64,000 nt of DNA from a virus. Its lineage: Duplodnaviria > Heunggongvirae > Uroviricota > Caudoviricetes. Both the position numbers and the translations under genes were made by a program. The stretch covers positions 1-64,000 of IMG/VR virus record IMGVR_UViG_3300036770_007945; one strand, written 5' to 3'. Numbering within the stretch: position 1 is the first letter of the stretch; each line of letters begins with the position of its first letter. Positions 22,268-64,000 of the stretch are shown piece after piece. The notes below the pieces were generated by a model. That model saw only the letters and a program-made list of their open reading frames with translations. It did not search any database and was not told where the DNA came from.

Positions 22268-22268
22268 T

Positions 22269-40967: not shown

Positions 40968-42308
40968 ATGGCAATTATAACAATAAAATCTAACCGCAAG
41001 GGATTCTCTTATGAGTTAAATAAGAATCCGAAATCCGGATTGCAGGCAAAAAGCTGCAGAGAGGGGATTCTTTTTGGTTTCTTTTCTCGGAAAGGTAAGA
41101 CTTTTAATCTATATTTTCAGGATAGTCCTCTTCTAGTATCCTTTCCCAACACGGAAGAGACGGAGGTAAACTACAACGACTTGACTAGGTATACTAGTCC
41201 TGAATGCTACCTGCATATGCTCGATAAAGGAATCTCTATCAAAGAGCCTGAAGAAGACGTAGAGTCGTTTAACGGCACTTACACTATGTCATTAAGTGGT
41301 GTTACAATCAAAAATACGGAGTTAGCTAAACTATTTGTCTCAGGTGTTCAAGATAAAGTTAAGATTGTTTTCAAAAAACTTTTATTAGAAAATGATGAGA
41401 TCTTTGCTGTGACTTTCGAAATGAAAGCGACATGTCTATACAATATAGTGCAAGTAGTTAAGCTTTTTCTACTTTTAATGTTTGCTCATAACACATCAGG
41501 TGAAAAGCAAAGATACTTTGCTCCGGAACAGGTATGGAAGTATTTACAGCAACTAGTTAGATTAAACCTAAACTATAAGTTACGCTGTGTTTTTAAAGAT
41601 TCTTTTCTACAAAACAGCCTTTTCAAAACAAAATATAAAGAGTTATTAGAAAGGTCTCCTACGCACAGTTATACTTTTAATGTCGATTCAAATCTACAAC
41701 AATGTAAAAACTACATCATGGCTTTACCTATGGTGCATGACTATAAACACATTATAACATTAGGAGATCTAGCAGGGGCTTATTATAAGACTTTGATTAA
41801 GAAGCTAGTAGACACAAAGGAAGATAATATTTACCTTTCGTTATTAGGTGTAAATGATAGGATTGCTTCAAAAGCGTCTCAAGATTCTGTTCAGGAGGCA
41901 TGCGCCGTAAACATTTATAACACAGTAGAAGATATAAAGTCTTCCTTAGGAGATTTTACTAAGAAAGGGGCGGCCACTTTAATAATCCATCTTGAGGATT
42001 TAGAAAAATATTCGCAAAAACCTTTGATTAGTGTCTCTGATGAAGAGGAGGGTAGTATAAATTCCGCTTGCGAGTTGATTAAAGGTCTAAGCGCAAAACA
42101 ATTCACTCTCGAAGACTTACAGGTAAGTAAAATAGTAGTAGTCGACTGTTTAGAATCTGAGGATGACTCTCAAGTAGATACTAAATACCGCTTGCTATTT
42201 TTAAAGGCTTTGGGATGTTCATGGGAGTTAATAAATAGCACTTTAGTAGGGGATAGAGTTGACGATTATCAGCCTTACCGTGTCGATATCTACAACGAGC
42301 TTTACTAG
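40968..42308 (+). CDS. Hypothetical protein.
   Basis: A 446-aa ORF. Confidence 0.45.
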   Translation: MAIITIKSNRKGFSYELNKNPKSGLQAKSCREGILFGFFSRKGKTFNLYFQDSPLLVSFPNTEETEVNYNDLTRYTSPECYLHMLDKGISIKEPEEDVESFNGTYTMSLSGVTIKNTELAKLFVSGVQDKVKIVFKKLLLENDEIFAVTFEMKATCLYNIVQVVKLFLLLMFAHNTSGEKQRYFAPEQVWKYLQQLVRLNLNYKLRCVFKDSFLQNSLFKTKYKELLERSPTHSYTFNVDSNLQQCKNYIMALPMVHDYKHIITLGDLAGAYYKTLIKKLVDTKEDNIYLSLLGVNDRIASKASQDSVQEACAVNIYNTVEDIKSSLGDFTKKGAATLIIHLEDLEKYSQKPLISVSDEEEGSINSACELIKGLSAKQFTLEDLQVSKIVVVDCLESEDDSQVDTKYRLLFLKALGCSWELINSTLVGDRVDDYQPYRVDIYNELY

Positions 42309-50159: not shown

Positions 50160-50339
50160 AAATGTTTTTTAGAAATTACAAAGAAATTAACCTTTAATTC
50201 TAGAGGTTATTTTTATAGTTGCAATAAGATTTTTGTATTTTTATAATGAAAAAATTCTAATAAAATTTTAGAATAGAGGTCGTTGTTAGGACGCCTTAAT
50301 TTTAGTTTATTTTTTCTCAATCCACTAACCGTTTCCATA

Positions 50340-51491
50340 ATGAGCATCCTAGCTATTCCGACGTATTTCTCTCAAGTCTCGAAAGCTTTAGAAGAGATAC
50401 AACCTAACATACCAGTATATATAATGAAGAGACACATACTGGAAGAAAAAGTAAAGACTTTTAGTGCAATTTTTCAAGGAAGAGTCCTTTACTCGGTGAA
50501 AAGCAACCCCTGTGAAAAAATTCTAACAACTTTATATAGTTTAGGAATAAAACATTTTGATGTCGCATCGATTAAAGAAGTAGAATTATTACGAAGAATT
50601 TTACCTCAAGCTGTTTTATATTACATGCATCCTGTGAAGAGTGCGTCTAGTATTAGAGACGCTTATTTTAATCATAACGTTAAAATTTTCTCGTTAGACT
50701 CCATAGAGGAGTTACATAAAATCTACAAAGCAACAAACAATGCAAAAGACTTATCTCTACATGTTAGGATAGCAACTGAAAATAAATCTTCTGCTTTCAA
50801 CCTCTCCTCAAAATTTGGTATAGATCTAGATAAAGCTTACGAGCTTTTGATTGAGACTCGAAAGCTTGCTTCTCAATTTGGCATATGTTTTCATGTAGGT
50901 TCTCAATGTTTAGATGCGCATGCCTTCAATCAAACCTTAAGTAGACTGTCTTCCTACTTGATAGAGAAGAAAATATCTATAGACGTTGTAGATATAGGTG
51001 GAGGTTTCCCTGTTAGATATCCAGAAATGATACCTATGAATCTAAACATCTATTTAGATAAAGTGAACTCCGCAATAAATACTTTTAGAGAGGTTTTTCC
51101 TCGTTGTGATGTTTGGGCAGAGCCCGGTCGCGTTTTAGTAGCTGAAGCAGGTTCTTTAGTTGTGAGAGTAGATAGGAGAAAGGATAACGTCCTATATATC
51201 AATGATGGAGTATACGGGGGGTTGTTTGACGCAGGCACTCCCGCTTTTCGTTATCATGCAACGGCTTACAGGGGGTCACCTAATAAAGGGGAAACTCTTT
51301 CTCAAGATAATGTCATGTTCTCTTTTTATGGGCCTACTTGTGATTGTTTGGACTATATGGAGGGGCCATTCATACTACCCAAAAACATAAAAGAAGGGGA
51401 CTATATAGAACTTCATAATCTTGGAGCTTACTCAAAAAGTCTCAGAACTAACTTTAATGGTTTTTATGACTACTTGGAGCTAGACTTGTAA
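50340..51491 (+). CDS. PLP-dependent decarboxylase of the ornithine-decarboxylase (fold III) family.
   Basis: YSVKSNP is the PLP-Lys motif (YAVKCN-like). The DIGGGFP, AEPGR and GPTCDCLD motifs are characteristic of ODC-type enzymes. The track start at 50283 is a TTG; the first ATG is at 50340. Confidence 0.7.
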   Translation: MSILAIPTYFSQVSKALEEIQPNIPVYIMKRHILEEKVKTFSAIFQGRVLYSVKSNPCEKILTTLYSLGIKHFDVASIKEVELLRRILPQAVLYYMHPVKSASSIRDAYFNHNVKIFSLDSIEELHKIYKATNNAKDLSLHVRIATENKSSAFNLSSKFGIDLDKAYELLIETRKLASQFGICFHVGSQCLDAHAFNQTLSRLSSYLIEKKISIDVVDIGGGFPVRYPEMIPMNLNIYLDKVNSAINTFREVFPRCDVWAEPGRVLVAEAGSLVVRVDRRKDNVLYINDGVYGGLFDAGTPAFRYHATAYRGSPNKGETLSQDNVMFSFYGPTCDCLDYMEGPFILPKNIKEGDYIELHNLGAYSKSLRTNFNGFYDYLELDL

Positions 51492-51514: not shown

Positions 51515-52270
51515 TTAAATTAACCTGGAATACTTTTTAACTCCAGGAGGTATCTTCTTAGCAAGCTTCTTTGTCACTTTATCTAGTTTTTTGTTAACGA
51601 GGTCTAAGGCTTTAGTTGTAGTGATGTCCGCCACCTCATAGTTATCCATAGCAAACGTTGCTTTAATTTTTAAAAGCTGTTTGTCTACGTGATCGTTACT
51701 AAAACTTAATCCTTCTAGAGATAAAGGAAAGACTCCATTGATAGTTACTTTTAGAGCGAGATCCCCTTTAGTGTTATAGACGTTTAAGGATACGTTATCA
51801 ACGCAGTAAGCAGCTTTAGTATTATTAATAACGTTTGGTATCAGTTTACTTGTAAACTTTTTTAAAGCTCCAGGAACCATTCCCTGCAAACCGCTAGAGA
51901 TTAAAGACTTACCTTCTTGAGAGTGCCCTGTTTGCGTGTCTGAAATATTGTTTAACCAGACGTAGATTAGTTGGTAAGAATCAGCATTGTATCCAAGTAA
52001 ACTTGTATCTCCACTAACGAGAAATTCGCAAGAAAATTCTTGAGAGCCAAACTTCTTAATACCTCTGTGAGGAACTTTATAACCGTGCATCTCGACTATC
52101 AAGGGTTCAATTTCAATTGGGGGTAGTGAGACACTCGTGCATTTTAAAACTACTTCTTTACTTTGTGTAAAACCGCTGCCAGGAACCACCCCTAAGTTTA
52201 ATAGATAATCATTCGAGGTAAGGACGGAGTCGACTAAGGGTTTAATGTCAGAAAATGAAGCGCGAGCCAT
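51515..52270 (-). CDS. Tail-tube-fold baseplate protein (gp19 paralog, gp48/gp54-like).
   Basis: N-terminal MARASFSDIK matches the tube protein's MARTKFSDVK. The C-terminal pattern is also related. Confidence 0.45.
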   Translation of the reverse strand: MARASFSDIKPLVDSVLTSNDYLLNLGVVPGSGFTQSKEVVLKCTSVSLPPIEIEPLIVEMHGYKVPHRGIKKFGSQEFSCEFLVSGDTSLLGYNADSYQLIYVWLNNISDTQTGHSQEGKSLISSGLQGMVPGALKKFTSKLIPNVINNTKAAYCVDNVSLNVYNTKGDLALKVTINGVFPLSLEGLSFSNDHVDKQLLKIKATFAMDNYEVADITTTKALDLVNKKLDKVTKKLAKKIPPGVKKYSRLI

Positions 52271-52444
52271 ATTTAAATAGTTACTAAAAAGTTACTGATG
52301 TTAGTAATAGTAAACTTGTATAAAACTTTATTACCTAAGAGTAAAATTAGCGGAGCTTATAAAGATTCTTAGAAGTCTGTTGATGTTTAGCTAATTTTTA
52401 AGGAGGACAAACATAAGATTAATTAACGTCTACCTATAATAAAC

Positions 52445-54532
52445 ATGGCATATACCGCATACATTACCACCGCAGGACAAGAAGCAATAGCAGCCGCTCA
52501 GTATTCTGGTTACAAGATCTCGCTAGTGCGCTTTGTAATAAGTAACACCCTAATTACTGAGACTAACCCTGTAGTTATACGAAACTATACTCAATTGCCT
52601 GGAACAGTGGTTTTTGACAGTGGCAATAATCCCGCAGGCAACATACTCACTTATACTAAAAACGCAACCACTGGTATTACAATAACTACTTATTTAAACT
52701 CAACTTTAGGGGATTTCACGATAGGTTCAATTGGTTTATACTTAGAAGACGGAACACTCTTTGCTATTCTGAAATTGACAGAGACTTACTCTAAAACAAA
52801 GAACACTAGTAGCGTTGCTGGTAATACTATTGCTTTCCCGTTTTCTTTTGTATTGACGTTGCAGGATGTTTTGAACCTAAGTGTAACACCTGAAAGTGTT
52901 ACCTCGCTATCTCAGGTTGCAACCGAAGCAGATTTACCTCTATATAGTATTGCCCCTTACGCAAATTACTTTATTCAAAATTTTGCCAGCACAAATCAAA
53001 CAGCTATTGCGTGTAGAACAAATACAGGTTGGCAATATATTGTCTCTTATAACCACGATGTTTTAGAAAACTGGGTAAAAGCTCTCCCAGAAAATTTTGC
53101 AACAGGCGTTGTAGAGGGCAACATTGTTTATTTAGACACAGTATTAGGTAAATGGACAAATCTCGATGGTGATGGCGATGAAAAAAAACTTATTGGCATT
53201 AGACAAGGAAATGGTGTGCGCACAGGCAACTTCTTTTATCGAAACAATGCCTTCGTTCCTGGAGAGAATTACTTTTGCGACACTTATCCGCAAGTAGGTA
53301 AATTAACTTTGAGAAGTTCAAGATACTATATTGGCACAGCCTTAACAAACTCATTACTCAAAGTTGCGGTCTCATACGATGCACAAAATTTTACACCGAC
53401 AGCTCCTACACATTACGACGCACACGTTGTTTCCGGTAGTATTATAAGATTAGTTTTGGATGATGTTAACTTATACCCAGACTCTTATTATCATGGACTT
53501 TCTGTTAGTTTTGTATCTCCTATAAACTGCGTAGCAAACCAACAAATACAAATAGGTTCTTCTTTAGCCGTAGTTCCTCTTACCAAAAGATTGACAGGCT
53601 TAGCAGGTTCTTATTCCTCTCTAGAAGCGGGTGCTTTTCCCGCAGGATCTTTACTGAAGCTAATATACCTCAAAGAGGCGGAAGGCTTTGTTATAGAGGC
53701 TGAAAAATTACAAGCTTCTACAACTACGCGGGGTGTTTCTTACCTCAACAACCCAATTACCATTGCAAATAATGCCTCTGATGCAAACAACGATATTGAT
53801 TTTAGTGCGGGAAATTTTCAATTTAGCGACGGCTCAGGTCAAGCTTTAGCAACCGCAATAATGACAAAAAGACTTGATGCAACTTGGTCGGCAGGCAGTG
53901 GAAATGGTGGTTTATTTAATGGAACTGCTGTTCCAAAAGCAGTTAATTCCACTTACCACTGCTATAAAATTTACAATCCAACGACTGGTGCAGAAGATTC
54001 TGGATTCTTACTTGGTATTTCAGGAACTGCACCAAATCCAACCAGCGTGCTTCCTAGTGGCTATACTAAATTCAAAAGGGTTGCTTCAATTCTAACCGAT
54101 GGAAGCGGAAACATTCGAGCATTTACGCAATTTGGAAATTATTTTAAATATACATCGGGAATTTCTGATGTGAATACTAGTTTCGTTGCTGGCTCTACTA
54201 CACCAACGGTTTCCACCCCATTTGGAATTAATTCTCTTGGAATTTTTAATATAGGCTTAAGTATTTCTTCTATCTCAACGGGAAATAATATTTGGTCGGT
54301 GATAAGTGATTTTAATCAGACATCAAGTTTAGGAATAGTATCGATTCCACAAGCAAGCGTGAATGTTACGAAAATTCCTTCGTTTATCAATATTGCTTCT
54401 AGTCCCGCTTTTGCTTTTACCAATTTATCAAGTCAAGTTAAAATATTTAATAATGAGGGGGTTCTAGCCACAACTCTTGCTAGCATAAGTCTTTTAACCC
54501 ATGGCTTTATCGATATTAATTTAAATTCATAA
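52445..54532 (+). CDS. Tail fibre or receptor-binding protein.
   Basis: A 695-aa Ser/Thr/Gly/Asn-rich protein. A C-terminal block is homologous to the 5945..6934 product. Confidence 0.5.
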   Translation: MAYTAYITTAGQEAIAAAQYSGYKISLVRFVISNTLITETNPVVIRNYTQLPGTVVFDSGNNPAGNILTYTKNATTGITITTYLNSTLGDFTIGSIGLYLEDGTLFAILKLTETYSKTKNTSSVAGNTIAFPFSFVLTLQDVLNLSVTPESVTSLSQVATEADLPLYSIAPYANYFIQNFASTNQTAIACRTNTGWQYIVSYNHDVLENWVKALPENFATGVVEGNIVYLDTVLGKWTNLDGDGDEKKLIGIRQGNGVRTGNFFYRNNAFVPGENYFCDTYPQVGKLTLRSSRYYIGTALTNSLLKVAVSYDAQNFTPTAPTHYDAHVVSGSIIRLVLDDVNLYPDSYYHGLSVSFVSPINCVANQQIQIGSSLAVVPLTKRLTGLAGSYSSLEAGAFPAGSLLKLIYLKEAEGFVIEAEKLQASTTTRGVSYLNNPITIANNASDANNDIDFSAGNFQFSDGSGQALATAIMTKRLDATWSAGSGNGGLFNGTAVPKAVNSTYHCYKIYNPTTGAEDSGFLLGISGTAPNPTSVLPSGYTKFKRVASILTDGSGNIRAFTQFGNYFKYTSGISDVNTSFVAGSTTPTVSTPFGINSLGIFNIGLSISSISTGNNIWSVISDFNQTSSLGIVSIPQASVNVTKIPSFINIASSPAFAFTNLSSQVKIFNNEGVLATTLASISLLTHGFIDINLNS

Positions 54533-54534
54533 AT

Positions 54535-55671
54535 ATGTTTATTTTTCAAAATCCAAAAACTAAAATAATATCAACTTTTAATAATTTATCTGAAGTAGGG
54601 ATGGGCTTTATTGATTGGATAAATATTACCGACACGGACGAAGCAAAAAATTATTTGTTGCAAAAAGCAAAAGACGAAAAAATTGCTGAACTAGACAACT
54701 ATTACAGCTCAGGAAAATGTTGGGAATTTACTGTGAGATCCGAAAAATTAAAAGCTAGCTTAACGCAAGAGGTAAATTGGTTTGCTACTAAACTACCGGC
54801 AGTGGATACAAATATTCAAATACTACTTACGACCGCAGAAAATAGTAGAGTTCCTGTTCAAATTTCAGAAGCCCGCGCTAAAAAGCTCAACAATCTCATA
54901 ACTATAGATTTGTCCAGTAAATTGCGTGTTGCAAAGCTTACAGGAGAAGCGCATATCAACAAACTCTATAGCGGGTTATCGGATACCTTGAAAGAAAAAA
55001 CTAATGAGGATTCTTTAGAAGAAGCTCTGCATACTCTCAGGGATATAGAAGTAACCGATTACTTTCAGAATATTTCTCGTTGTATAGATTTAGATCTGAT
55101 TAGAGAGGACGGTAGCTTGGTTAACACTAACCCTACACTACGCGAGGCAAAAGATGAAAAAATTGCAGAAATTAAAAATATTAGGGATAAAAAGAATATC
55201 GATCCTTCTGTAAGTAAAGGGGAGTTAGTAGATATTAATTCTGCCCATCTACAAGGTTCAGGAAAGTTCGTAGATTTTTTCTTTGACTGTAATAAACATC
55301 CGACTAACCCTCTATCTGAGCCAACAGTTCTTTTAAGCCACTGTATTTCAAACAAGACTGCTATTCCTTACTTTGCTAAAAACAAAGAAGGAGAATCTAT
55401 CGTTATCAGGCTTACTCCTGAGCTAGCAAGCGATATTGAACGCCACTTGATAGATAGAAATTGCAATAACTTCACGTTAGCAAAAATCATTATAAAATAT
55501 ATCGAAGACTATTGCACTACAGTAGAAGAAGTTCAAAAAGTGACTTGGGATCCTCGCTATTTAAATGAGCAAGAGGTAAGAGAAGTGGTTGCGAATACCT
55601 CACAAGAGACAAACGCAGACAAGAAATCTTCAACTGAGGTAGATAATACACCTACGGAATCTAAAGAATAA
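54535..55671 (+). CDS. Hypothetical protein, possibly a fibre assembly or attachment factor.
   Basis: A 378-aa ORF immediately after the fibre gene, with an internal duplicated AKDEKIAE segment. Confidence 0.35.
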   Translation: MFIFQNPKTKIISTFNNLSEVGMGFIDWINITDTDEAKNYLLQKAKDEKIAELDNYYSSGKCWEFTVRSEKLKASLTQEVNWFATKLPAVDTNIQILLTTAENSRVPVQISEARAKKLNNLITIDLSSKLRVAKLTGEAHINKLYSGLSDTLKEKTNEDSLEEALHTLRDIEVTDYFQNISRCIDLDLIREDGSLVNTNPTLREAKDEKIAEIKNIRDKKNIDPSVSKGELVDINSAHLQGSGKFVDFFFDCNKHPTNPLSEPTVLLSHCISNKTAIPYFAKNKEGESIVIRLTPELASDIERHLIDRNCNNFTLAKIIIKYIEDYCTTVEEVQKVTWDPRYLNEQEVREVVANTSQETNADKKSSTEVDNTPTESKE

Positions 55672-55689
55672 CTAAAGAAATAAAGTATT

Positions 55690-56088
55690 ATGAAACCAGA
55701 AGTTCTTAACTCTATTACGGATTTAAACACCTCATACCTTACCGGATTTAAAGCTAATGACCTAATAGTAACCGGAACGGATGCTATTAATCAACAAATT
55801 TTAAACCTACTAAGCACTTCACCAAAGGATATACTATTTCAACCAGAATTAGGTTCGATGCTTGAATATTACTTATTTGAACCTATAGACACAAACACCG
55901 CATACAACATTAAAATCTGGGTGTTAGAAGCTTTAGAACGGTGGCTACCTTTTATTACAATGCTTCCTGAAGAGTCTTCAGTTATTCCAGACTTACAAAA
56001 TCAAAGTTATAACATCCGCATTACCTACAGAGTAAACGGCACAGATGTTATAAGTAATGTGTTAGCCCAGTTTAGCCGGAGCATGTAA
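55690..56088 (+). CDS. Baseplate wedge protein (T4 gp25 / GPW-like).
   Basis: The protein is 132 aa. ILNLLSTSPKD...QPELGSMLEYYLFEPID...WVLEALERWLPFI matches the GPW/gp25 signature. Confidence 0.55.
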   Translation: MKPEVLNSITDLNTSYLTGFKANDLIVTGTDAINQQILNLLSTSPKDILFQPELGSMLEYYLFEPIDTNTAYNIKIWVLEALERWLPFITMLPEESSVIPDLQNQSYNIRITYRVNGTDVISNVLAQFSRSM

Positions 56089-56103
56089 CCGCTTAATAAG
56101 CAA

Positions 56104-57312
56104 CTATATCTCTTGCTCTAAGCCTTGTGAGGATATACGTATATGATCACCGAACGGCGGTATAATGCTAACGTCGTAGAGGTCTTGGACTATGACGAAA
56201 AGGGTATCGCAGTAACCCTCTTCTCCCCACCCCTTACTCGGTTCCCCATCACTAAAAATGATTAATAGGTCGGGGTTTATATCATTATTTTTCAAGTGCT
56301 CCCAATTCAATTCAAACCCAGTATACCTTTCCCTATTAATCTCATAATCCTGTAACAAAACCCCCTCTCCGTTACGCAAAACTTGAGCATTATTAACAGT
56401 CTCTCCGAAATTCCAGATATGAACTTCTAATTGAGTCTCTTCGTTTAATAAAGATCCTACTTCTTTTAAAAATTTTTTTACCCATTTTGGAGAGACGCTA
56501 GTAGAAGTATCAATCCCTATAGCTAGCAACACTTTGTCTTTTTTTAAAATACCTGGAGTAATTATTCCAAGCGATTGTAGTTTTCTCGAAGGCACGCTAT
56601 ATGTAAAATCTACATGTATCTTTTGTCGGATGATTCTAGATAACTCCTGCTGCCAACATACTTCACCTTGAGCACTTTCAGCCGTTAAGAGAATAGTGGA
56701 TACCTCCTGCAATAACGGATGATTGTCTAAAGCTACTGCCCTTTTAAATTTTTCAGTAAAGTCTCCCTCACCCTCTAAAACTATTTTTGAGTCCTTCAGT
56801 TGAGAAGTCTCCTCCCCAAGAGAATGTTCGTCTAAGGTCTCGAGAGTTTGAGTTTGTGTTTCTTCAGCACTCTGTTTTAAAAGATCTGCGTAGATTTGCT
56901 CAGAGGTCATTTCATCATACTTACTGTCATATAAAGCTCCTTGAATCTTGTAACCAATTTTATGCTTTACGAGTAATCTATTAACAGTGTAATCACAAGC
57001 AATGTTCCAGAGATGTTGATTGTAATTCTCTAGTGATATACTCCTATCAAAGTGGTTTAATATACAATGTAAGAGTTCGTGAGCTAGTAAGAATACCACT
57101 TCGTCATCACGCAAACCTTCTACAAATTCCTGATTAAAATATATAGCTTTTTGGTTTATAACCGCAGCAGTTTTAACAGGACTACTTTCTCCTACTAAAA
57201 AGTAGTCAAAAGCTGTAGTCAGCGTTCCTAACCAACTTGCCTCCTTATAGAGGTTAAGTCGCGCTTTCAAAATCTTCTGGATACAAGGTTCAAAGTTTAT
57301 AATAGATTTCAT
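56104..57312 (-). CDS. VWA-domain protein with an N-terminal HExxH metallopeptidase-like domain (DUF2201-type MoxR partner).
   Basis: HExxH motif is LAHELLHCILNH. The MIDAS-like motif is IGIDTSTSVS. It lies immediately downstream of the MoxR ATPase gene on the same strand. Confidence 0.55.
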   Translation of the reverse strand: MKSIINFEPCIQKILKARLNLYKEASWLGTLTTAFDYFLVGESSPVKTAAVINQKAIYFNQEFVEGLRDDEVVFLLAHELLHCILNHFDRSISLENYNQHLWNIACDYTVNRLLVKHKIGYKIQGALYDSKYDEMTSEQIYADLLKQSAEETQTQTLETLDEHSLGEETSQLKDSKIVLEGEGDFTEKFKRAVALDNHPLLQEVSTILLTAESAQGEVCWQQELSRIIRQKIHVDFTYSVPSRKLQSLGIITPGILKKDKVLLAIGIDTSTSVSPKWVKKFLKEVGSLLNEETQLEVHIWNFGETVNNAQVLRNGEGVLLQDYEINRERYTGFELNWEHLKNNDINPDLLIIFSDGEPSKGWGEEGYCDTLFVIVQDLYDVSIIPPFGDHIRISSQGLEQEI

Positions 57313-57324
57313 GACGCAAGACCT

Positions 57325-58587
57325 TTAAATTTTAATATGAAGTATTAGACTCTGAATTCTGTCCTTGATGTTATTAACGTGAGTAACGAAAAGATCGCAC
57401 AGAGAGTCTTCAAGGAGTGTTCCAGATTCTTTCTGCCAATAACCAAAGGAGACTGCTTTACCTTTGACCGCATGTAGAAGATGCTTACAGTGTTCAGGCA
57501 CACTACTAAAGAAAACCACTTCAAGTTCGGGATCCCCTGACAGTAATTTTAAAATTGTATAAGATTTGACTAATCGCTCTAAACCAGCGGCACTATCGGA
57601 AGGAGCCCCTTTAGTATATGTAGACAAGCTCTCTACTATAGATGTAGAGGTTTTGAATAACAGTTCTCTCTCTTTTATGTCTCGTAGTAACAACACCTCT
57701 TCTATGTCCATTTTAAGGTATTTTGAAATACTAATGTGTTTGCTGTCTTTTAAGTTATACTTAATCCAATTAATAAAGGCTGCCGCTGAGTTTCGAGAAA
57801 TACAAGAAGAAACCGCTTCAATTAAAAGAGGCGAGTTATTTCCATAAGAGTAATCTTTTAATGCTAAATCCCTTAAAGCTTCTTCTGTAGGTGCTAGCTC
57901 TTTTAAACAAGCATCTACACTTGCCCAGCTTCTCGGGGTCGCAAAAGCTCTGTCTTTAAAGGTGTGAGGTTCTTTAGAAAGAGTGAATAAAGCCTTCGGC
58001 TCTTCTTCAATGAATTTAATGATTGCTGAATGAATATTATTCTTTCTAGCCCAATCAAGCCAGGCATTGCTACAATACTTTATTTCTATATGCACGAAGC
58101 GGTTTAGAAGAGGAGTAGCCATTTTAAATGTGACTCCTCTATCGCTATCTCTATTACCTGCAGCCACTACAGAAACTTTTGCTGGCAATGTATAGTCACC
58201 TATTTTTCTATCAAGAACGAGCTGATACGCTGTTGCCTGCACTGAAGGGGTAGCGCAATTAAACTCATCTAAAAAAAGAATACTATCATCCTCAGGATCT
58301 GTAGGTAGACAAGAAGGAACTGCCCAGTTCATAGTAGTCTTACTTGAGTCTAAGAAAGGAATTCCTCTTAGATCTGAAATATCTAACTGCGAAAGCCTCA
58401 AGTCTATTACCTTGCGTTTTCCCTCTAAAGCAACCTGTTTAATTAGATCTGATTTACCTACACCAACAGGTCCATGTATAAATAGAGGTTTTTGTAATTT
58501 TAAAAAGAGTTTAACTAAAGGCAAAGCTTTTTCAAGATCTAAAGGTTCTAAGTCTTGAAGCTTTATTTGTTGTATATTATTAGTCAT
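57325..58587 (-). CDS. MoxR-family AAA+ ATPase.
   Basis: Walker A is HGPVGVGKSDL. Walker B is ILFLDEFN. The downstream ...VVAAGN... region is typical of MoxR/CbbQ. Confidence 0.65.
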   Translation of the reverse strand: MTNNIQQIKLQDLEPLDLEKALPLVKLFLKLQKPLFIHGPVGVGKSDLIKQVALEGKRKVIDLRLSQLDISDLRGIPFLDSSKTTMNWAVPSCLPTDPEDDSILFLDEFNCATPSVQATAYQLVLDRKIGDYTLPAKVSVVAAGNRDSDRGVTFKMATPLLNRFVHIEIKYCSNAWLDWARKNNIHSAIIKFIEEEPKALFTLSKEPHTFKDRAFATPRSWASVDACLKELAPTEEALRDLALKDYSYGNNSPLLIEAVSSCISRNSAAAFINWIKYNLKDSKHISISKYLKMDIEEVLLLRDIKERELLFKTSTSIVESLSTYTKGAPSDSAAGLERLVKSYTILKLLSGDPELEVVFFSSVPEHCKHLLHAVKGKAVSFGYWQKESGTLLEDSLCDLFVTHVNNIKDRIQSLILHIKI

Positions 58588-58694
58588 AAAAAGATTATTA
58601 TATGGTTACTATTTAAACAACTATATAATAATTACAATTTTTTTAAAAGGCAACAAAATAAATAAAAAATTTTGATATCTTTTTACTTTTAGTT

Positions 58695-59264
58695 TTACTC
58701 TTTATCCCCGAGGTTTAGGTTTGACCGAATTAGGAGTTCTTTTCCTACTAACTGAGGAGTAAGGGCTTCGATTAAAGCATCTCGCTGCTTTGAGTCCTTC
58801 TTAATGTAGCATAGTGTGACATGAGGCACGTAACCTGCAAAGGTATTTATGTGAGGCAAAAACTGTAGTCTTTGATGAGCTTCGAGAATACTTGGGGTCA
58901 AGCTTATTTTAGCTATGATACAGTAATACTCTTCTTCTGGGTATGGGCTATCAAAATACTCAACACTCTCAACTTTAACGCTCGAGAGAGTCCACCCCTT
59001 TAGAACTGTTTTAATTTGCTTGGCAATTTTCTTTGCTGGTGACAATAATCCATACAGTAAGGTGACGTGCGGGTTTTTATCCGCTACCCAACCTTTAATC
59101 CAATGTTTTTTAGGATCCGTTGATGTATAAAATTCATACGGCTCTGAAAACTTTTCAATAGTGATAGGATAAACATCAGCCATAACGCAACCCAAAGCAC
59201 TCAAATCTATATCTAGATCTTTATACAGTTCCTTAAATTGATGAGCACTATGTTGTTTATCCAT
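58695..59264 (-). CDS. 2H phosphoesterase (LigT / 2',3'-cyclic phosphodiesterase family).
   Basis: Two H-x-T-x motifs, NPHVTLLYG and VPHVTLCYI, are spaced ~85 aa apart. Confidence 0.6.
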   Translation of the reverse strand: MDKQHSAHQFKELYKDLDIDLSALGCVMADVYPITIEKFSEPYEFYTSTDPKKHWIKGWVADKNPHVTLLYGLLSPAKKIAKQIKTVLKGWTLSSVKVESVEYFDSPYPEEEYYCIIAKISLTPSILEAHQRLQFLPHINTFAGYVPHVTLCYIKKDSKQRDALIEALTPQLVGKELLIRSNLNLGDKE

Positions 59265-59270
59265 TCAAAG

Positions 59271-59768
59271 CTATTCTTGGCCTTCGTAGATATTTAACCA
59301 ATCTGGTTTTTGATGTGGATCTCTAGCTGAAGGGTTGTAAGCATAAAATAAACTGCAAGCCGCCTCTATTTGATTGTTATTTACTAACTCTTGCATTGCT
59401 ATTTCCAAATCTCTTCGGGCAATTAATATTTCTCCGTAAGCTTCTGAAAACAGTTGACAATACTCAATGCCGTTCGCTCCATAAGAGTGGTAAAGGATAG
59501 GTAAGCTGACTTTTGCATTGATGATACGTAGTGGTAAAACTTCTAGAGTGCTTTTTAAATAGACAGCTACATTTTCTGTATTTGTATCTGTATTTGTATC
59601 TGTATTTGTATCTGTATTTATATTCTCTATATTTACATTTTCTGTATTTGCATCTGTATTCCCTACATTATCTGTATTTGTATCTGTAGTAAGCTCTTCG
59701 GTATTTTTAGAAGGCTGATTATCATTTTGATTAGAAGACTTTTGGTTATTCTTATTGCGTTTGAACAT
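59271..59768 (-). CDS. Hypothetical protein with a TD/TN dipeptide repeat tract.
   Basis: ...NTDTNTDTNTDTNTENV... is encoded by a 12-bp tandem repeat. The N-terminus is Asn/Gln-rich. Confidence 0.4.
   Translation of the reverse strand: MFKRNKNNQKSSNQNDNQPSKNTEELTTDTNTDNVGNTDANTENVNIENINTDTNTDTNTDTNTENVAVYLKSTLEVLPLRIINAKVSLPILYHSYGANGIEYCQLFSEAYGEILIARRDLEIAMQELVNNNQIEAACSLFYAYNPSARDPHQKPDWLNIYEGQE
59575..59690. repeat. 12-bp tandem repeat (TCTGTATTTGTA, about 8-9 copies including degenerate ones).
   Basis: Read directly from the sequence. Confidence 0.8.
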
Positions 59769-59828
59769 AATGTATTAAATTGTGTTAATATTTATATAAA
59801 ATTAGATTGACTTTCTTCTCGTATAGAC

Positions 59829-60920
59829 TTACTTCTTGTTACAGGTGACGTCTGCTAGTGTTTCCCAATCATCACTGAATTTTGCTAAGTCTGCAATCTT
59901 CTTCACTGTGCGTAAAGATAATTCTCTTAGGGTATCTAATGATTTCTCAACATAGTTTATAATTTGTTGTTGTTTCTCTTTAGAGAAGCGATAAGAGTAT
60001 AACATCTCGGATTCAAGAATAACTTGCTTGATTCTAATGAACTTATCTCTATTAGAGTTGATATCTAAACTTAAATAATGACAACGGGATTCAATAGCCT
60101 GTAAGTGTTCTTTTAAAGCACCGCTCTTGATCTGATCAAATTTAAGATTCGTTATGAAAACGATCTGACCTTCGAAATCAAAGCTGTTAGGAATATCTTT
60201 ACGTTCTAAGGTTCTGCTATCCGAACCCCAAGTAACAGTGCGTTTCTCCGTAGTATCTAATACTGCTTTGAAAAGGTTAAGTGTATTTTGATCATAGAAG
60301 ACAGAATCGCAGTCATCAAAGACTAATATGCTATTTCGGTCTTTAAATTCAAAAAGCTTTTGATAAATGAAAAAAGCAGTAGCTGTTCCTTTAATGAATT
60401 CGTATTTCATGTTTTCATTTTCTAAGCGCTGTAGTTTTAACTGCGTCTCTATGCCATGTGTTTTACCTACCCCTGCTGGACCAGAAACTACTAAAGCTCT
60501 TATGACTCCTGAGGCAACAGCTTCTACTAAAGATTCCATGACTTTAAATCGTTTTCTAATGCGATTCGCTGCCTGTTCTTCAGTCTCTTCTATTAATGGC
60601 TGTTTTATATCTTCCATAGCGTCTATTTCTTGTTTTATTTCTTTAAAGGAGAATTCTCCTAGATCATTAATATTAGAGTTCAGCAATGATTCTTCTTCAG
60701 TATTAAAAAATTGATACTGAGTTTGTGGAGTCACTCTTACGGATACAATTTGATTATCTTTCAAAATAATACAAAATTTTTCTCCGTCTTTAGCTTTCAT
60801 TCCGTTGTGTGAATACGCTCGTAGTCTCGGACTGACCATGAGAAAGTTGCCAGAAATGCTTTCTTGTTTGTAGAAAGCATTATTTAATTTAACTGCATTG
60901 TCTTGTTTTTTAGTTGACAT
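59829..60920 (-). CDS. P-loop NTPase (AAA+/DnaC-like).
   Basis: Walker A is SGPAGVGKTHG. Walker B is ILVFDDCD. A sensor-1-like FITN follows. Confidence 0.5.
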   Translation of the reverse strand: MSTKKQDNAVKLNNAFYKQESISGNFLMVSPRLRAYSHNGMKAKDGEKFCIILKDNQIVSVRVTPQTQYQFFNTEEESLLNSNINDLGEFSFKEIKQEIDAMEDIKQPLIEETEEQAANRIRKRFKVMESLVEAVASGVIRALVVSGPAGVGKTHGIETQLKLQRLENENMKYEFIKGTATAFFIYQKLFEFKDRNSILVFDDCDSVFYDQNTLNLFKAVLDTTEKRTVTWGSDSRTLERKDIPNSFDFEGQIVFITNLKFDQIKSGALKEHLQAIESRCHYLSLDINSNRDKFIRIKQVILESEMLYSYRFSKEKQQQIINYVEKSLDTLRELSLRTVKKIADLAKFSDDWETLADVTCNKK

Positions 60921-61016
60921 ATATAAAATTTTTGTTGTTATTATTAGTATTTTATTTTTATTACCTATTTAATTCTAACTCTTTAATTATATATATCAAC
61001 TAATTTTTTTAATCTT

Positions 61017-62237
61017 TTACTTTTTATACAAAAAATTAAAAAATTTCTGCCAGATATTTTTAGGAGAGAAGTTCTTAACTTCCTCCTTTCTTGCTAGCTC
61101 CCGAAAATTACTACTATTACTTCTATTTAAGACTTCTTTCTGTCTTTTTCTTTCAACAAATAAAGGCTCTAACTCTTTCATAGTAGGTAAGGAGGTTTTT
61201 GGTAGTGTATATCCAGGCAACTCGTCTTGCATCTGCTTGACAAAAGCTTCTAAGGTTAAATCGCAATACTCATCAATCCAATCTGCAATATAGAATAGTT
61301 TATCAGAGTCTTCTAACAAGACACCAAATAGAATCGGATCTTTGTCTTTCACTTTCTGCGCTGTCGACTTTACACTATCTGCCTCTTTTGTATAATCTAA
61401 GTATAAGATGTGAAACGATTCAAAAATCCCTTGTTCCTGGGCAAGAGTTAGTTTCTCCATTACCTCGTCAGGGATGGCTCGAGGAAACTCTCGCAAAGGC
61501 TTAAAGTATGCTGTTTTGCCTGCGACATTTCTTATGAATTGCTCTACTGTCTTCTTAGAGACATAAGTAGTATAGTTTAGAGCCGCCGCTTCTCGAATCT
61601 TAACTAACTCTAACATCTTATCACGGGATCTTTCATTTAAGGCTAACTGACCGCTTCGAAGAGTAGCTTCGTAAAGTCTCCTAAATTTTAAAATCTCTTC
61701 CTCTACTGCTTTCTTTTCGACTTCTGTTAGAGTTCCTTTGACAACGTTAAAAAGAATTTTAGGTGAGACCACTCGACGGTTTGCCGGAAAAGAGCTATAT
61801 AGATCTTTAAGCTGTCTTGTAATAAAAGAATCTTCTGAGTCTTGGTTAAACGCTTCTGCCTTTTCTTGCTCTGCTTTCTGTAAAGCTTCCCACAGGTCTT
61901 TCGCTTCCTTTTCTGTTAACTCCCTATAACCTACGTGCTGTGATAAAGGCGAAAATAACTCATTGACTACTTTATCAATGACTTCTTCCTTCTGTTCTTT
62001 TGTAGGTTGTTGTTCAGGAGATAAGTTGTGGAAAGTTCTTATTTCCTCCTCAAGATCTTTTTTCCGCAATACGTCGGTCGCAATCGTTGAGAGGGACATA
62101 ACACTATACTCTTCCGAATCATTCATTTCCGTAGCAGTAACCAGCTGTTGAAGTTTGTCTTCTTTCAAAGGTTCTTCATAAGAAGCGTTCACGGATTTCG
62201 GAGTGAATTTCAAAGAATTGTTACGGTTATTAGTCAT
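61017..62237 (-). CDS. Hypothetical protein.
   Basis: A 406-aa acidic, helical protein. Confidence 0.45.
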   Translation of the reverse strand: MTNNRNNSLKFTPKSVNASYEEPLKEDKLQQLVTATEMNDSEEYSVMSLSTIATDVLRKKDLEEEIRTFHNLSPEQQPTKEQKEEVIDKVVNELFSPLSQHVGYRELTEKEAKDLWEALQKAEQEKAEAFNQDSEDSFITRQLKDLYSSFPANRRVVSPKILFNVVKGTLTEVEKKAVEEEILKFRRLYEATLRSGQLALNERSRDKMLELVKIREAAALNYTTYVSKKTVEQFIRNVAGKTAYFKPLREFPRAIPDEVMEKLTLAQEQGIFESFHILYLDYTKEADSVKSTAQKVKDKDPILFGVLLEDSDKLFYIADWIDEYCDLTLEAFVKQMQDELPGYTLPKTSLPTMKELEPLFVERKRQKEVLNRSNSSNFRELARKEEVKNFSPKNIWQKFFNFLYKK

Positions 62238-62270
62238 AATTATATATGTATTTTAAGGTTAATAAAGTAG

Positions 62271-62510
62271 TTACGGGCAGTTAACTACTCGGCCATCTTT
62301 TTTAAAATGTGGCACAATTATAATCTGCCCAGAGTCTTCAAACTTTAAGTATTGAACTTGGTCTACACAAAATTTTTCATACTTAACTCCAGGCACCTCG
62401 GCAACTACGGCTTCAAACACAGTAGGAGCTTTAAGGGAGTCTATATTAACGTTGATCTTCGTCATAGTGTCTATTAACAACGCATAAATGTATAAATTCA
62501 TTGTGATCAT
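62271..62510 (-). CDS. Hypothetical small protein.
   Basis: A 79-aa ORF. Confidence 0.3.
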   Translation of the reverse strand: MITMNLYIYALLIDTMTKINVNIDSLKAPTVFEAVVAEVPGVKYEKFCVDQVQYLKFEDSGQIIIVPHFKKDGRVVNCP

Positions 62511-62531
62511 AGTTTAATCAATATTTGTTCT

Positions 62532-63857
62532 TTAGAGTCGAGGGTCTAGAGTCTTTTCCTGCTCCTCTATTGCAATGATGTTCGCTAAGACATTCTTATA
62601 GTGATCATTATCTACACTTAAATCTTTATAAGGAATTTTAAGTAATTGTTGAGCATTATTGAACTCCTCTATACTCAACCTCATCTTATTTTTAACATCC
62701 TTTTTAGCTAATAATTTTTGATACTTCGCTGGATTTTCTAAATAATCGAAACCATAAACAAGGCGTAGAAATTCTGGAGTTCTTACTTTTAAAGCCGGTG
62801 CAATGTTCTTCTGGGCTACTTCACTAACGTCTTCCAAGATTGGTTTAACCACAACCCCCTCTAAGTCAGAAGTGGCGTTCGAAGGATTAGCAGCCCCTGC
62901 AGCTACCTTTAATCTCAATAAAGCCTCTTTTAAAGAGAGGTTATTACCGTAATTCTCTTGACAATTGTAAGTAATGCTTGGGTCTTGGCTAATTTCCCAA
63001 TAAGATTGTGCAAAATCCGGTAGAATCTCTGTTCCATCTCGCAATACAATTTTTAAAATTGCAAAAGGTTTAAAAGTTAGGTTTCCTGCAGAGCCAAAAA
63101 GTTCAACCTGTTCAGAAAAGCGTTTGCAGCTACCTTTTAAGAGGGTGAGCTTTTCTTTTGAATCTAACACTAAGTCATTACCTTGTAAAGACTTTAGAGT
63201 ATGAAGAGTTTCTTTTGCGCGTTCCCCTAGATTAGAGGCGCTTGAATCTTTAAGACTATCTAACAAATCCATCTTTGATTTTAAGAACATAGGGAAGCTT
63301 TCTGCTTGTAAAATTTTTAATTCCTTAGCTATCAATTTTGTTAGAGGTTTATAAGTTTTATTTACTAAACCTTTACCTAAACTAAACCAAGGCAATAACT
63401 CCCCATCTAATATAAGGCATTCAATATCATATTTGTCATACAAGGCTTTTACCTTCGCAGAATGTTTAATGCGACGGAAGAAAGCTCTAAAGTTTTCTAT
63501 ACTGCCCTTGTCTTTGAAAACTCTATTAATTTTATAACCACCTCTTGAGATCATATAACAATCCGAAATTTGATCTTTGAGGTAAACAGTGCACCTGCTA
63601 CCCATATATTTTGGTTGAATTATAACTTGGTTAACTTTTTTATCTTTATAATAATTCAGGGCTGCAGACAACTCCTCTAAGGATTTTTCGTCACTTGCTG
63701 AAGGAGCTATAGTATTCGCCACAAAATTCACTTTGTGTTTTGCAAGATTTTTGATTCTTCTTATTGTAGCGCTGTCAGAGACCTCAGTAAATTTAACAGT
63801 ATTAGTGTCAAAGAGTGAGAATAGTTGTGGGCGTTTACTAGCAAAAGTATTATTCAT
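62532..63857 (-). CDS. ATP-dependent polynucleotide ligase (DNA/RNA ligase, nucleotidyltransferase superfamily).
   Basis: Motif I variant IIQPKYMGSR, motif III LILDGELLPW, motif IV EGVVVKP and motif V KVRTPEF occur in the canonical order. Confidence 0.5.
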   Translation of the reverse strand: MNNTFASKRPQLFSLFDTNTVKFTEVSDSATIRRIKNLAKHKVNFVANTIAPSASDEKSLEELSAALNYYKDKKVNQVIIQPKYMGSRCTVYLKDQISDCYMISRGGYKINRVFKDKGSIENFRAFFRRIKHSAKVKALYDKYDIECLILDGELLPWFSLGKGLVNKTYKPLTKLIAKELKILQAESFPMFLKSKMDLLDSLKDSSASNLGERAKETLHTLKSLQGNDLVLDSKEKLTLLKGSCKRFSEQVELFGSAGNLTFKPFAILKIVLRDGTEILPDFAQSYWEISQDPSITYNCQENYGNNLSLKEALLRLKVAAGAANPSNATSDLEGVVVKPILEDVSEVAQKNIAPALKVRTPEFLRLVYGFDYLENPAKYQKLLAKKDVKNKMRLSIEEFNNAQQLLKIPYKDLSVDNDHYKNVLANIIAIEEQEKTLDPRL

Positions 63858-64000
63858 TAAATCCTGCGCCTCTGTTTCAAAAAAGAGCTTGCTTTTCTTC
63901 TTTGTTTGATTTGAAAATTCGTAGACGGTTAATCCTGAGTTACAGTAGACTCCAGAATCTATACCTACTTTATTCTTATACTTAAAACCTTTAGCTGTTG

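Follow-up and report, generated by a model that had tools for sequence, protein, structure and literature searches.

Do the co-directional genes between positions 56104 and 63857 of the window, by which we mean the whole 64,000-nt stretch of phage DNA analyzed here, form one accessory system, or do they represent separate modules? The original prediction raised the first possibility. We favor the second, with a probability of about 0.65: the block would be a co-directional, non-structural cluster of separate modules lying side by side in an uncultivated myovirus. The modules are RNA repair, a 2H phosphodiesterase, an NrdC.10-type ATPase with a phrog_10081 protein, and a MoxR-class ATPase with a zincin-vWA protein. 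The source phage (~140 kb) carries genes for a tail sheath, a gp25-like baseplate protein and a UvsX-like recombinase.

The block extends beyond the window edge

The ORF list contains eight consecutive co-directional minus-strand ORFs from 56104 to 63857, with intergenic gaps of 21, 33, 96, 60, 6, 107 and 12 nt. While these predicted genes are real, the upper boundary initially assigned to them had to be moved. No stop codon interrupts the frame of the ligase gene between 63857 and the window end (64000), and a metagenomic contig, L094, which is 100% identical to window positions 59590-64000, carries a 913-aa gene whose start lies about 1273 nt past that end. Consequently, the ATG at 63857 is a window-edge artefact. 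L094 also reveals one more co-directional gene, of 122 aa, upstream, so that the block comprises nine genes. Its GC content is that of the remaining window. No minus-strand terminator-like site was found in the intergenic gaps of the block; a single transcript is therefore possible.

The ligase gene is predicted to encode a trifunctional Pnkp

The window holds the 3' part of the ligase gene (62532..64000, minus strand), which matches PNKP_ligase (5.5e-28) and whose open frame extends into sequence alignable to the end of a metallophosphatase domain. The complete 913-aa protein on L094 combines AAA_33, Metallophos and PNKP_ligase domains (kinase, phosphatase and ligase) and has the motifs GPSGAGKS, GDVHG, GDFIDKG, GNHE and KYMG. 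The best PDB match of the ligase part is 4XRP_B, the Rnl of the Pnkp1-Rnl-Hen1 complex (E=5e-40). Thus, the ligase domain originally called is genuine, but it is a piece, cut by the window edge, of what appears to be trifunctional Pnkp, the bacterial RNA-repair enzyme.

Homologues of Pnkp occur in RNA-repair operons with Hen1, RlaP, kinase or phosphatase genes. Other viral Pnkp genes adjoin Hen1, and none of the block's genes was present at those loci. The expected partner, whose activation of the ligase is documented (PMC4411300), is encoded here by a Hen1-like gene (40968..42308, plus strand; Hen1_N E=4.7e-27) located 20 kb from Pnkp on the opposite strand. Its methyltransferase half is degenerate: when aligned to five Hen1 proteins, it shows GDLAG in place of GCGEG and lacks the motifs EVxEH and RHxDH.

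The domain architectures and catalytic motifs are observed; the enzymatic steps and targets proposed here and below, like co-transcription of the block, are inferred. Pnkp would heal and seal RNA, typically tRNA, cut by host ribotoxins or anticodon nucleases to leave 2',3'-cyclic phosphate and 5'-OH ends. The kinase would phosphorylate the 5' end and the Mn-phosphatase would clear the 3' end. Sealing would fall to the ligase, whose active site is expected to require the Hen1 N-terminal domain for its opening. Since the methyltransferase half of the Hen1-like protein looks inactive, repair in this phage would probably occur without subsequent protective 2'-O-methylation.

An obligate pair: a MoxR-class ATPase and a HExxH-vWA protein

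The ATPase (57325..58587, minus strand) matches phrog_1297 (E=8.5e-79), has Walker A at residues 39-46 and Walker B at 103-108, and finds midasin as its best PDB match. It belongs to the MoxR class, although calling it a canonical MoxR is an overstatement because its matches are limited to AAA and AAA_5. The adjoining gene (56104..57312, minus strand) encodes, as predicted, a vWA protein with an N-terminal zincin-like HExxH domain (DUF2201_N E=5.6e-21; DUF2201, the vWA part, E=1.7e-7). Its MIDAS is complete, and the C-terminal domain of its model matches vWA and I domains. Across 39 sequences, H78, E79, H82, H87, D268, S270, S272, T331 and D355 do not vary.

That the two are partners was confirmed in a survey of 80 viral and 80 bacterial/archaeal loci carrying the vWA-peptidase. 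The ATPase gene lies upstream of it in 68/80 bacterial/archaeal loci and in 79/80 viral loci, the latter not being independent samples because most come from one broad clade with PA5oct-like synteny. The two proteins are an obligate pair, which Iyer et al. 2021 (PMC7824862) had already reported from group 2.2 jumbo phages. In the most likely mechanism, the vWA MIDAS site would capture a target protein through one of its acidic residues, the AAA+ ring would use ATP to remodel this protein, and its cleavage would fall to the fused HExxH domain. Other MoxR-vWA pairs include RavA-ViaA, CbbQ-CbbO and NorQ-NorD, to which Rea1/midasin can be added.

We also searched the same loci for the other block genes within 8-10 kb. 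Pnkp, 2H and the 406-aa protein described below were found in 0/160 loci at the tblastn cut-off used (E<=1e-3), which may miss a very divergent 2H, and an NrdC.10-like protein was found in just one of the 160. Neither these counts nor a related lineage that lacks the pair (see below) support the proposed functional tie between the MoxR-vWA pair and the ligase, 2H and P-loop proteins.

The remaining genes include a NrdC.10-family ATPase and a 2H phosphoesterase

The P-loop protein (59829..60920, minus strand) is an AAA+ ATPase with Walker A at 147-154 (GPAGVGKT), Walker B at 198-203 (ILVFDD), FITN, and SRC at 278-280. Its proposed DnaC/IstB-like nature is not supported: phrog_3277 scores E=0.0048 versus E=4e-87 for phrog_1250, the T4 NrdC.10 family. 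Tblastn matches to it occur in 1307 phage records, some of them to genes annotated nrdC.10, and there the protein stands on its own.

Upstream lies the gene for the 406-aa protein (61017..62237, minus strand), whose C-terminal ~240 aa match phrog_10081 (E=1.7e-28), a widespread phage domain. The 'transposase' label of this family is without support. The protein gave no Pfam or PDB match, has an invariant DPIxFG...WxDEYCD motif, and counts 114 relatives in IMG/VR. In the 80 loci of these relatives retained for comparison, the block's ligase, NrdC.10-like, MoxR and vWA genes were absent from all, and a 2H homologue lay ~6 kb off in one. The adjacent 79-aa protein (62271..62510, minus strand) had no family match except a weak one to phrog_7772.

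As originally described, a 165-aa low-complexity protein (59271..59768, minus strand) carries TD/TN repeats, encoded by a 12-nt unit in 4.1 copies with 97% matches (59575-59623; repeat region to 59688). No homologue of it was found in the related phages L177, L179 and L182, where other small ORFs take its place; this position is a variable slot.

The 2H phosphoesterase call (58695..59264, minus strand) was likewise upheld, by two HVT motifs (66-68 and 148-150; H66 and H148) and a match to Pfam 2_5_RNA_ligase2 (E=2e-7, 31.6 bits, cut-off 27). Its AF2 model (pLDDT 94) resembles penguinpox cGAMP PDE, plant CPDase and Usb1 and, to a lesser degree, Acb1 and LigT. Among viral structures, actinophage phosphoesterases come nearest (TM 0.8), and actinophages also contain the closest relatives in sequenced phages; the model places the protein with them in a distinct viral subgroup. 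The enzyme would either open 2',3'-cyclic RNA ends or destroy host immune nucleotide messengers.

Conservation of the block probably follows genome-wide colinearity

Gene-neighborhood conservation, which the original prediction proposed as a check, gave a split result. Two divergent lineages related to this phage, L177/L178 and L182/L183, contain the full block, with amino-acid identities of 29-61%. In a third, L179/L180, Pnkp through 2H is kept, including the 79-aa protein at 44% identity, but the genes next to 2H are an SbcC-like gene and a DNA ligase instead of the MoxR-vWA pair. The order Pnkp, small ORF, 406-aa protein, NrdC.10-type ATPase, variable slot and 2H is maintained in all three at 41-66% identity. 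The same relatives also keep the flanking genes, namely a 251-aa ORF (n4, 51515-52270), a tail fibre, a gp25-like gene and a PLP decarboxylase. Therefore, the synteny is genome-wide and not specific to the block. PA5oct carries these families dispersed over about 15 kb.

Separate modules or one system

Together, the missing pair in L179/L180 and the syntenic flanks speak for lineage colinearity of separate modules rather than a demonstrated system, although the order within the lineage could reflect selection for linkage instead of plain colinearity. It is very improbable that a single accessory system comprises all eight or nine genes, with MoxR-vWA remodelling acting on or with the end-processing enzymes. 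The co-directional genes, short gaps, lack of terminator-like sites between them and recurrence of the full block in two lineages would fit such a system. Against it stand L179/L180, the flanking synteny, the absence of Pnkp, 2H and the 406-aa protein from the 160 pair loci, the other viral Pnkp loci, which have Hen1 and none of the block's genes, and the lack of any PADLOC defence-model match for the block proteins. Outside this phage lineage, the observed pairing statistics and synteny leave the MoxR-class ATPase and the HExxH-vWA protein as the sole genes travelling together. Unrelated pathways, named beforehand as evidence against a single system, largely account for the genes; for the ligase, the pathway is RNA repair (Pnkp/Hen1) and not DNA replication. 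A smaller unit is conceivable but unlikely: the 122-aa gene, Pnkp, the 79-aa and 406-aa proteins, the NrdC.10-type ATPase and 2H as a lineage-specific extended RNA-repair or counter-defence module, the 406-aa protein and the ATPase being new cofactors, 2H opening cyclic phosphates and MoxR-vWA a mere neighbor. This sub-block is present in 3/3 related lineages, including the one without the pair, and a displaced, catalytically degenerate Hen1 leaves room for other cofactors. In addition, Iyer et al. 2021 (PMC7824862) ascribe to 2H enzymes the removal of cyclic ends on behalf of RNA ligases, and the closest actinophage 2H, that of NiceHouse (46% identity), has an RNA ligase and a polynucleotide kinase within ~4 kb, a hint that 2H works with RNA repair. 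However, according to PMC3675462, the Pnkp phosphatase domain itself already handles 2',3'-cyclic phosphate, homologues of the two proposed cofactors elsewhere are never beside Pnkp or one another, 2H occurs alone in small phages, and the window phage and its three relatives are kin, so that the conserved order may be inherited colinearity.

The individual roles of two of the modules can be read in different ways. For 2H, immune evasion by degrading cyclic or 2'-5' oligonucleotide messengers (CBASS, type III CRISPR, Panoptes-type), instead of RNA-end healing, is a serious candidate, if somewhat less likely than not. The best solved structural match is the penguinpox cGAMP PDE (TM 0.62-0.69, E=2e-7), the phage BCSR5 PDE is also among the matches, and the gene shows high conservation (up to 67% identity) and also occurs alone in small phages. 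Such messengers are cleaved by many of the diverse viral 2H PDEs, yet certain groups were inactive on the 18 assayed (bioRxiv 10.1101/2025.08.21.671373). Furthermore, the protein scores 16.2 bits against Pfam Acb1 (cut-off 27) with a TM of just 0.41-0.43 (query-normalised), Arabidopsis CPDase and Usb1, which act on RNA or ADP-ribose cyclic phosphates, match almost equally, and fold alone does not give the substrate. For the pair, a function as virion-assembly chaperone and protease, not as a host-takeover or replication-phase factor, seems somewhat doubtful. It has been proposed by analogy with the MoxR/vWA tail-development proteins of Acidianus two-tailed virus (Iyer et al. 2021, PMC7824862); the window vWA gene adjoins baseplate and tail-fibre genes, and the PA5oct ATPase record bears an ESI-MS/MS note. 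In contrast, the neighbors of the pair in the 80 viral loci and PA5oct are RNase H, QueE, DHFR and ThyA-type genes, and the pair is also found in chromosomes of Acidobacteria, Brucella and Rhizobium (prophage copies not told apart). None of the papers found describes an experiment on an assembly role.

Comparison with known systems

The predicted Pnkp shares with the Pnkp-Hen1 and Pnkp1-Rnl-Hen1 systems its three catalytic modules and their order, together with the P-loop, metallophosphatase and ligase lysine motifs. Its ligase part aligns with the 4XRP Rnl end to end, and the phage genome also encodes the ligase-activating N-terminal domain of Hen1. It differs in that Hen1 is distant rather than adjacent and has lost its methyltransferase motifs, that unrelated genes lie beside this phage-borne Pnkp, and that it scores 136 bits against the TIGR04075 equivalog, far below the cut-off of 750. 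A phage example of the Pnkp-Hen1 system is ORF197/198 of Xanthomonas phage XacN1. The NrdC.10-type ATPase matches the phrog_1250 HMM over its full length and is 36-39% identical to genes annotated nrdC.10, but carries an N-terminal extension of ~100 aa compared with T4 NrdC.10. The 2H enzyme shares two HxT motifs and the 2H fold with viral PDEs (T4 Acb1, avian poxvirus cGAMP PDE), LigT/ThpR and plant CPDase (TM 0.5-0.7), while falling under the Acb1 Pfam cut-off and grouping apart, with the actinophage phosphoesterases. Finally, the MoxR-vWA pair matches that of jumbo phages (PMC7824862) in gene order and architecture, with an AAA_5/MoxR-class ATPase followed directly by a vWA protein with full MIDAS and N-terminal HExxH; here, however, it resides in a ~140-kb phage, not a jumbo phage, and is adjoined by the 2H gene and a baseplate module instead of RNase H and QueE.

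Genomic setting of the block

The block consists of eight minus-strand ORFs (g1 to g8; window 56104-63857) encoding proteins of 441, 79, 406, 363, 165, 189, 420 and 402 aa, respectively, separated in that order by gaps of 21, 33, 96, 60, 6, 107 and 12 nt. At 0.34-0.38, its GC content does not differ from that of the remaining window, which carries the myovirus genes for a tail sheath, a baseplate wedge protein, a gp25-like protein, a UvsX-like recombinase and three tRNAs. No close relative of this phage was found among 50,697 sequenced phages; its tail sheath shares at most 34-39% identity with that of any of them, and megablast of the block against the same records returned no match.

Profile searches bore out the domains originally predicted for g1 (a PNKP_ligase domain), g5 (a TD/TN low-complexity protein, with 4.1 copies of a DNA repeat of 12-nt period), g6 (a 2H phosphoesterase with two HVT motifs) and g8 (DUF2201_N, carrying HExxH, plus a DUF2201 vWA domain). 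They likewise confirmed g4 as an AAA+ P-loop protein and g7 as an AAA/AAA_5 ATPase. An Rfam scan of 55000-64000 found nothing, and the PADLOC defence-system models gave 0 matches at E<=0.001 for the nine block proteins searched.

Relative to shuffled sequence, there is no enrichment of sigma-70 promoter-like sites (29 vs 25±5.8), of terminator-like sites (6 vs 4.5±2.3) or of the T4 late-promoter motif TATAAATA (15 vs 9.7±2.8). One TATAAATA copy is located at 59789-59796 (-), where it precedes the g5 start codon by 21 nt, and a sigma-70-like site (10/12) at 60999-60972 (-), within the g3-g4 gap. Since both motif classes are unenriched, these sites hint at internal promoters only weakly, if at all.

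The ligase belongs to a complete Pnkp

The g1 ligase is truncated at the window edge. Its reading frame stays open up to the window end, a tblastn match to a metallophosphatase-ligase fusion passes the ATG at 63857 to reach 63992, and 46 residues beyond this ATG can be aligned to where the phosphatase domain in protein P0003 ends. Looking up the exact 441-aa sequence returned no record because the true gene is longer than the listed ORF. The corresponding look-up of the 406-aa g3 protein led to L094, a metagenomic contig that is 100% identical to window 59590-64000 over 4411 nt and runs 6.2 kb further.

On L094 the full gene encodes 913 aa, with an N-terminal AAA_33 kinase, a central Metallophos and a C-terminal PNKP_ligase domain. 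The product carries the Pnkp motifs GPSGAGKS (27-34), GDVHG (233-237), GDFIDKG (276-282), GNHE (304-307) and KYMG (555-558), and all Pnkp catalytic motifs are invariant across four orthologues. This is the kinase-phosphatase-ligase architecture known from bacterial Pnkp. The protein scores 135.8 bits against the NCBIfam TIGR04075 equivalog, far under the cut-off of 750, and is consequently a divergent relative of bacterial Pnkp rather than an equivalog. Over its whole length, the ligase part aligns with Rnl from the Capnocytophaga Pnkp1-Rnl-Hen1 complex (4XRP, E=5e-40). A co-directional 122-aa gene precedes Pnkp on L094, and beyond it an opposite-strand gene ends the block. This corrects the annotation: the apparent stand-alone ligase is a complete Pnkp. 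Matches to the ligase domain occur in 5 of the 50,697 phage records, making a complete phage-borne Pnkp rare among phages. IMG/VR pattern scans with single MoxR and ligase proteins returned 0 relatives.

An unlinked Hen1-like gene

Ligase homologues occur within RNA-repair operons, split or fused, together with Hen1, RlaP, kinase and phosphatase. Hen1 is adjacent to Pnkp in four contigs (L184, L186, L007 and L009), and in L184 and L186, both viral, it lies directly upstream. Scanning the 69 ORFs of the window outside the block revealed a Hen1-like gene at 40968-42308 (+), whose product matches Hen1_N (PF22032, E=4.7e-27, residues 3-230). Unlike in these four contigs, the Hen1-like gene here lies about 20 kb from Pnkp and on the plus strand.

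In an alignment with five Hen1 proteins, the C-terminal half of the Hen1-like protein aligns with the Hen1 methyltransferase domain, and its motifs are degenerate: GCGEG is replaced by GDLAG, and EVxEH and RHxDH are absent or deleted. We found no methyltransferase Pfam match for this protein, and a PDB sequence search gave no match. The Hen1 N-domain unlocks the Pnkp ligase (PMC4411300). As the N-domain is kept and the methyltransferase motifs are lost, ligase activation has apparently been retained and methylation lost. The protein may be a natural 'activator-only' Hen1, in which case the activation and methylation functions of Hen1 would have been separated by nature in this phage.

A second RNA ligase (PHA02142 OB-fold plus a PF09414 RNA_ligase domain) is encoded at 24416-25471 (+), about 2 kb from a tRNA-Asn/tRNA-Trp pair at 22191-22343 (+); a tRNA-Tyr gene lies further off, at 15472-15557 (-). 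Counting Pnkp, the phage therefore has two different RNA ligases as well as tRNAs of its own.

The 2H phosphoesterase and the conserved proteins g3 and g4

The HVT motifs of g6 (66-68 and 148-150) are invariant in 43 sequences, and its model (pLDDT 94) matches 2H structures. Its relatives are far closer than those of the other block genes, at up to 67% identity, and the nearest homologues among sequenced phages are from actinophages; among predicted viral structures it likewise groups with actinophage phosphoesterases (TM about 0.8). The best solved fold matches are a penguinpox cGAMP PDE (TM 0.62-0.69), an Arabidopsis CPDase, Usb1 and a Burkholderia phage PDE, and the Acb1 and LigT structures match less well than these four. 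An assignment to the Acb1 anti-CBASS nucleases was rejected: the score against PF23474 (16.2 bits) is below the cut-off of 27, and the Acb1 structures 7T26/7T27, at rank 26-27, are not close matches (TM 0.41-0.43 by query, 0.54-0.56 by target). Substrates of viral 2H enzymes vary widely, some of them cleaving 0 of 18 tested messengers (10.1101/2025.08.21.671373). In phage NiceHouse, the 2H gene has genes for an RNA ligase and a polynucleotide kinase no more than 4 kb away; elsewhere, 2H is surrounded by replication genes or small ORFs.

The g4 protein is a member of the T4 NrdC.10 family (phrog_1250, E=4.1e-87, residues 9-360, over the full-length profile) and carries an RFC-like SRC motif. 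By tblastn it matches 1307 phage records, some annotated nrdC.10 and many mis-labelled 'thioredoxin'. The DnaC/IstB-like identity first proposed for it was not upheld, with phrog_3277 as the only such match (E=0.0048, no stretch passing alone) and no IstB or DnaC Pfam match. We also considered a Trl1-like pathway combining a 2H CPDase, g4 as P-loop kinase and the ligase; it was rejected on two grounds: g4 is an AAA+ protein bearing an SRC motif, and Pnkp has its own kinase. The 'thioredoxin' label on NrdC.10-family AAA+ proteins in many T4-like records and the 'HNH endonuclease' label on phrog_1314, an HExxH-vWA family, both look like propagated mis-annotations.

The C-terminal phrog_10081 domain of g3 is widespread, with 114 IMG/VR relatives and further ones in SPbeta-like and Enterococcus phages, and its motif DPIxFG...WxDEYCD is invariant. 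A profile of this domain gave no credible Pfam or PDB match. At the 80 loci inspected of these 114, the only other block gene near the g3 relative was a single 2H.

MoxR and vWA form a two-gene unit

The g7 protein carries Walker A (GPVGVGKS) and Walker B (ILFLDE) motifs and matches AAA (28.7 bits, cut-off 21.2) and AAA_5 (23.6 bits, cut-off 22), with midasin as its best PDB match. It gave no AAA_3 match, so its subfamily is not MoxR proper; what was called a canonical MoxR ATPase is an AAA+ protein of the MoxR class (AAA_5). In g8, the candidate zincin residues H78, E79, H82 and H87 (HExxH plus a putative third zinc ligand) and the MIDAS residues D268, S270, S272, T331 and D355 (DxSxS...T...D) are invariant in 39 homologues. 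DUF2201_N is matched at E=5.6e-21, and the fold search is dominated by the vWA domain. Both domains are well predicted in the AlphaFold model (pLDDT 76), joined by a disordered linker, and the C-terminal one matches vWA and integrin I domains (Foldseek, E about 1e-5). A CobS/CobT-type chelatase reading of the pair, based on a weak phrog_249 match, was set aside on account of the invariant HExxH domain.

As anticipated for a MoxR and its vWA partner, a MoxR-like gene lies upstream on the same strand at 79 of 80 IMG/VR loci with a g8 relative, the exception being at a contig edge, and at 68 of 80 such loci in bacterial and archaeal genomes; the N4-like Erwinia phage S6 likewise has the two genes side by side. 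Near the viral loci we found an NrdC.10-like gene once and Pnkp, 2H, g2, g3, g5 and Hen1 never, and near the cellular loci none of the other block genes. In most viral loci and in PA5oct, a phage carrying the same families scattered over about 15 kb, the pair is surrounded by RNase H, QueE, DHFR and ThyA-type genes. The pair is thus a strict two-gene unit, common to many phages and cellular genomes and unconnected with RNA repair, which narrows the search space for its substrate. Literature searches on DUF2201 and on N4-like phage vWA/ATPase proteins yielded nothing useful.

Unrelated cargo of 1.3-9 kb separates the two genes in about a dozen viral loci. The inserts reach 6.6-9 kb in L092, L093, L100, L103, L134, L135, L147, L159 and L165, where the cargo encodes an AMP-binding enzyme, a tryptophan-halogenase-like protein and a ketoacyl synthase. 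The PA5oct insert between MoxR and vWA consists of a homing endonuclease gene and small ORFs. The MoxR-vWA gap looks like an insertion hot spot.

The block is conserved within one phage lineage

Contigs found through the 2H gene show 29-66% amino-acid identity to the window phage and represent three divergent lineages. Two of them (L177/L178 and L182/L183) keep the block in the order: gene of about 120 aa, Pnkp, (small ORF), g3, g4, two to three variable small ORFs, 2H, MoxR and vWA. The third (L179/L180) has the same series through 2H, followed by an opposite-strand SbcC-like gene and a DNA ligase, with no MoxR-vWA at that position. No g5 homologue was found in any of the related contigs.

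The flanking genes for a 251-aa protein, a tail fibre and a PLP decarboxylase are also kept in L177 and L182/L183, in part with their strand opposite to that of the block, as is the gp25-like gene within the L177 stretch compared. Since the flanks are conserved as well, synteny is a feature of the lineage as a whole rather than of the block. Outside this lineage, the block families are scattered or alone. The proposal of one system is not sustained: its components co-occur only within a single phage lineage.

When window 51515-56088 was compared with L177 13297-19496 and L182 15911-20567 for strand, the tail-fibre, gp25-like and decarboxylase genes were on the strand opposite to the block in the window and co-directional with it in L177/L182; the 251-aa gene shows the reverse pattern. 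These differences indicate a rearrangement abutting the end of the vWA gene. The decarboxylase (50283-51491, +; ornithine/arginine/DAP type, Orn_Arg_deC_N E=1e-38), conserved in L177 and L182, is a possible polyamine auxiliary metabolic gene.

The pooled Pfam scan of the 69 ORFs outside 56104-63857 also returned Band_7/SPFH (7e-16), Fic/DOC (7e-11), YopX (two ORFs), PTPS/QueD-like, thioredoxin, dUTPase and HNH matches; for SPFH proteins, Burroughs and Aravind have reportedly proposed a link with RNA repair. A calcineurin-like phosphoesterase adjoining a DnaG-type primase with zinc ribbon and Toprim (3775-4890, +, and 4936-5877, +) is probably an SbcD/Mre11-type nuclease.

A probable cluster of separate modules

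The block is best read as a cluster of separate modules that is conserved within the lineage and possibly co-transcribed. From the architectures, motifs and linkage counts we infer the enzymatic steps and targets as follows. Pnkp would carry out RNA repair with an activator, the Hen1-like protein, encoded elsewhere in the genome. The 2H phosphodiesterase could act in RNA-end healing or in evasion of immune signalling, and g3 and g4 would stand among these modules as two uncharacterised conserved phage proteins. In the MoxR/zincin-vWA pair, the MIDAS site most likely captures a target that is remodelled at the expense of ATP and cleaved.

Other readings join more of the genes. An extended repair module running from Pnkp to 2H and peculiar to this lineage is unlikely; the retention of this stretch where MoxR-vWA is missing speaks for it, whereas g3 and g4 relatives elsewhere are never next to Pnkp or to one another. 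Still less probable is a new multi-component repair or counter-defence module made up of Pnkp, the 79-aa g2, the phrog_10081 protein g3, the NrdC.10-type AAA+ protein g4 and 2H, in which Pnkp repair would be rewired around an unlinked, non-catalytic Hen1 activator. The degenerate Hen1-like gene about 20 kb away fits such a scheme, which, if true, would provide the first functional context for the widespread T4 NrdC.10 and phrog_10081 families. The fully integrated system of the original prediction is the most doubtful: the order conserved in two related lineages speaks for it, the dispersal of the families outside the lineage against it.

The modules can be compared with known systems one by one. 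The pair with an N-terminal metallopeptidase has already been described in group 2.2 jumbo phages, where a role in virion assembly was proposed (Iyer et al. 2021, PMC7824862). Our counts add that MoxR-vWA is a strict two-gene unit without a link to RNA repair. Pnkp/Hen1 has likewise been noted in a phage, XacN1 (PMC5852040); what is new here is a full-length Pnkp in a phage of such size and a Hen1 that seems reduced to its activating domain. Each module belongs to a known kind, and the block reveals no new kind of system.
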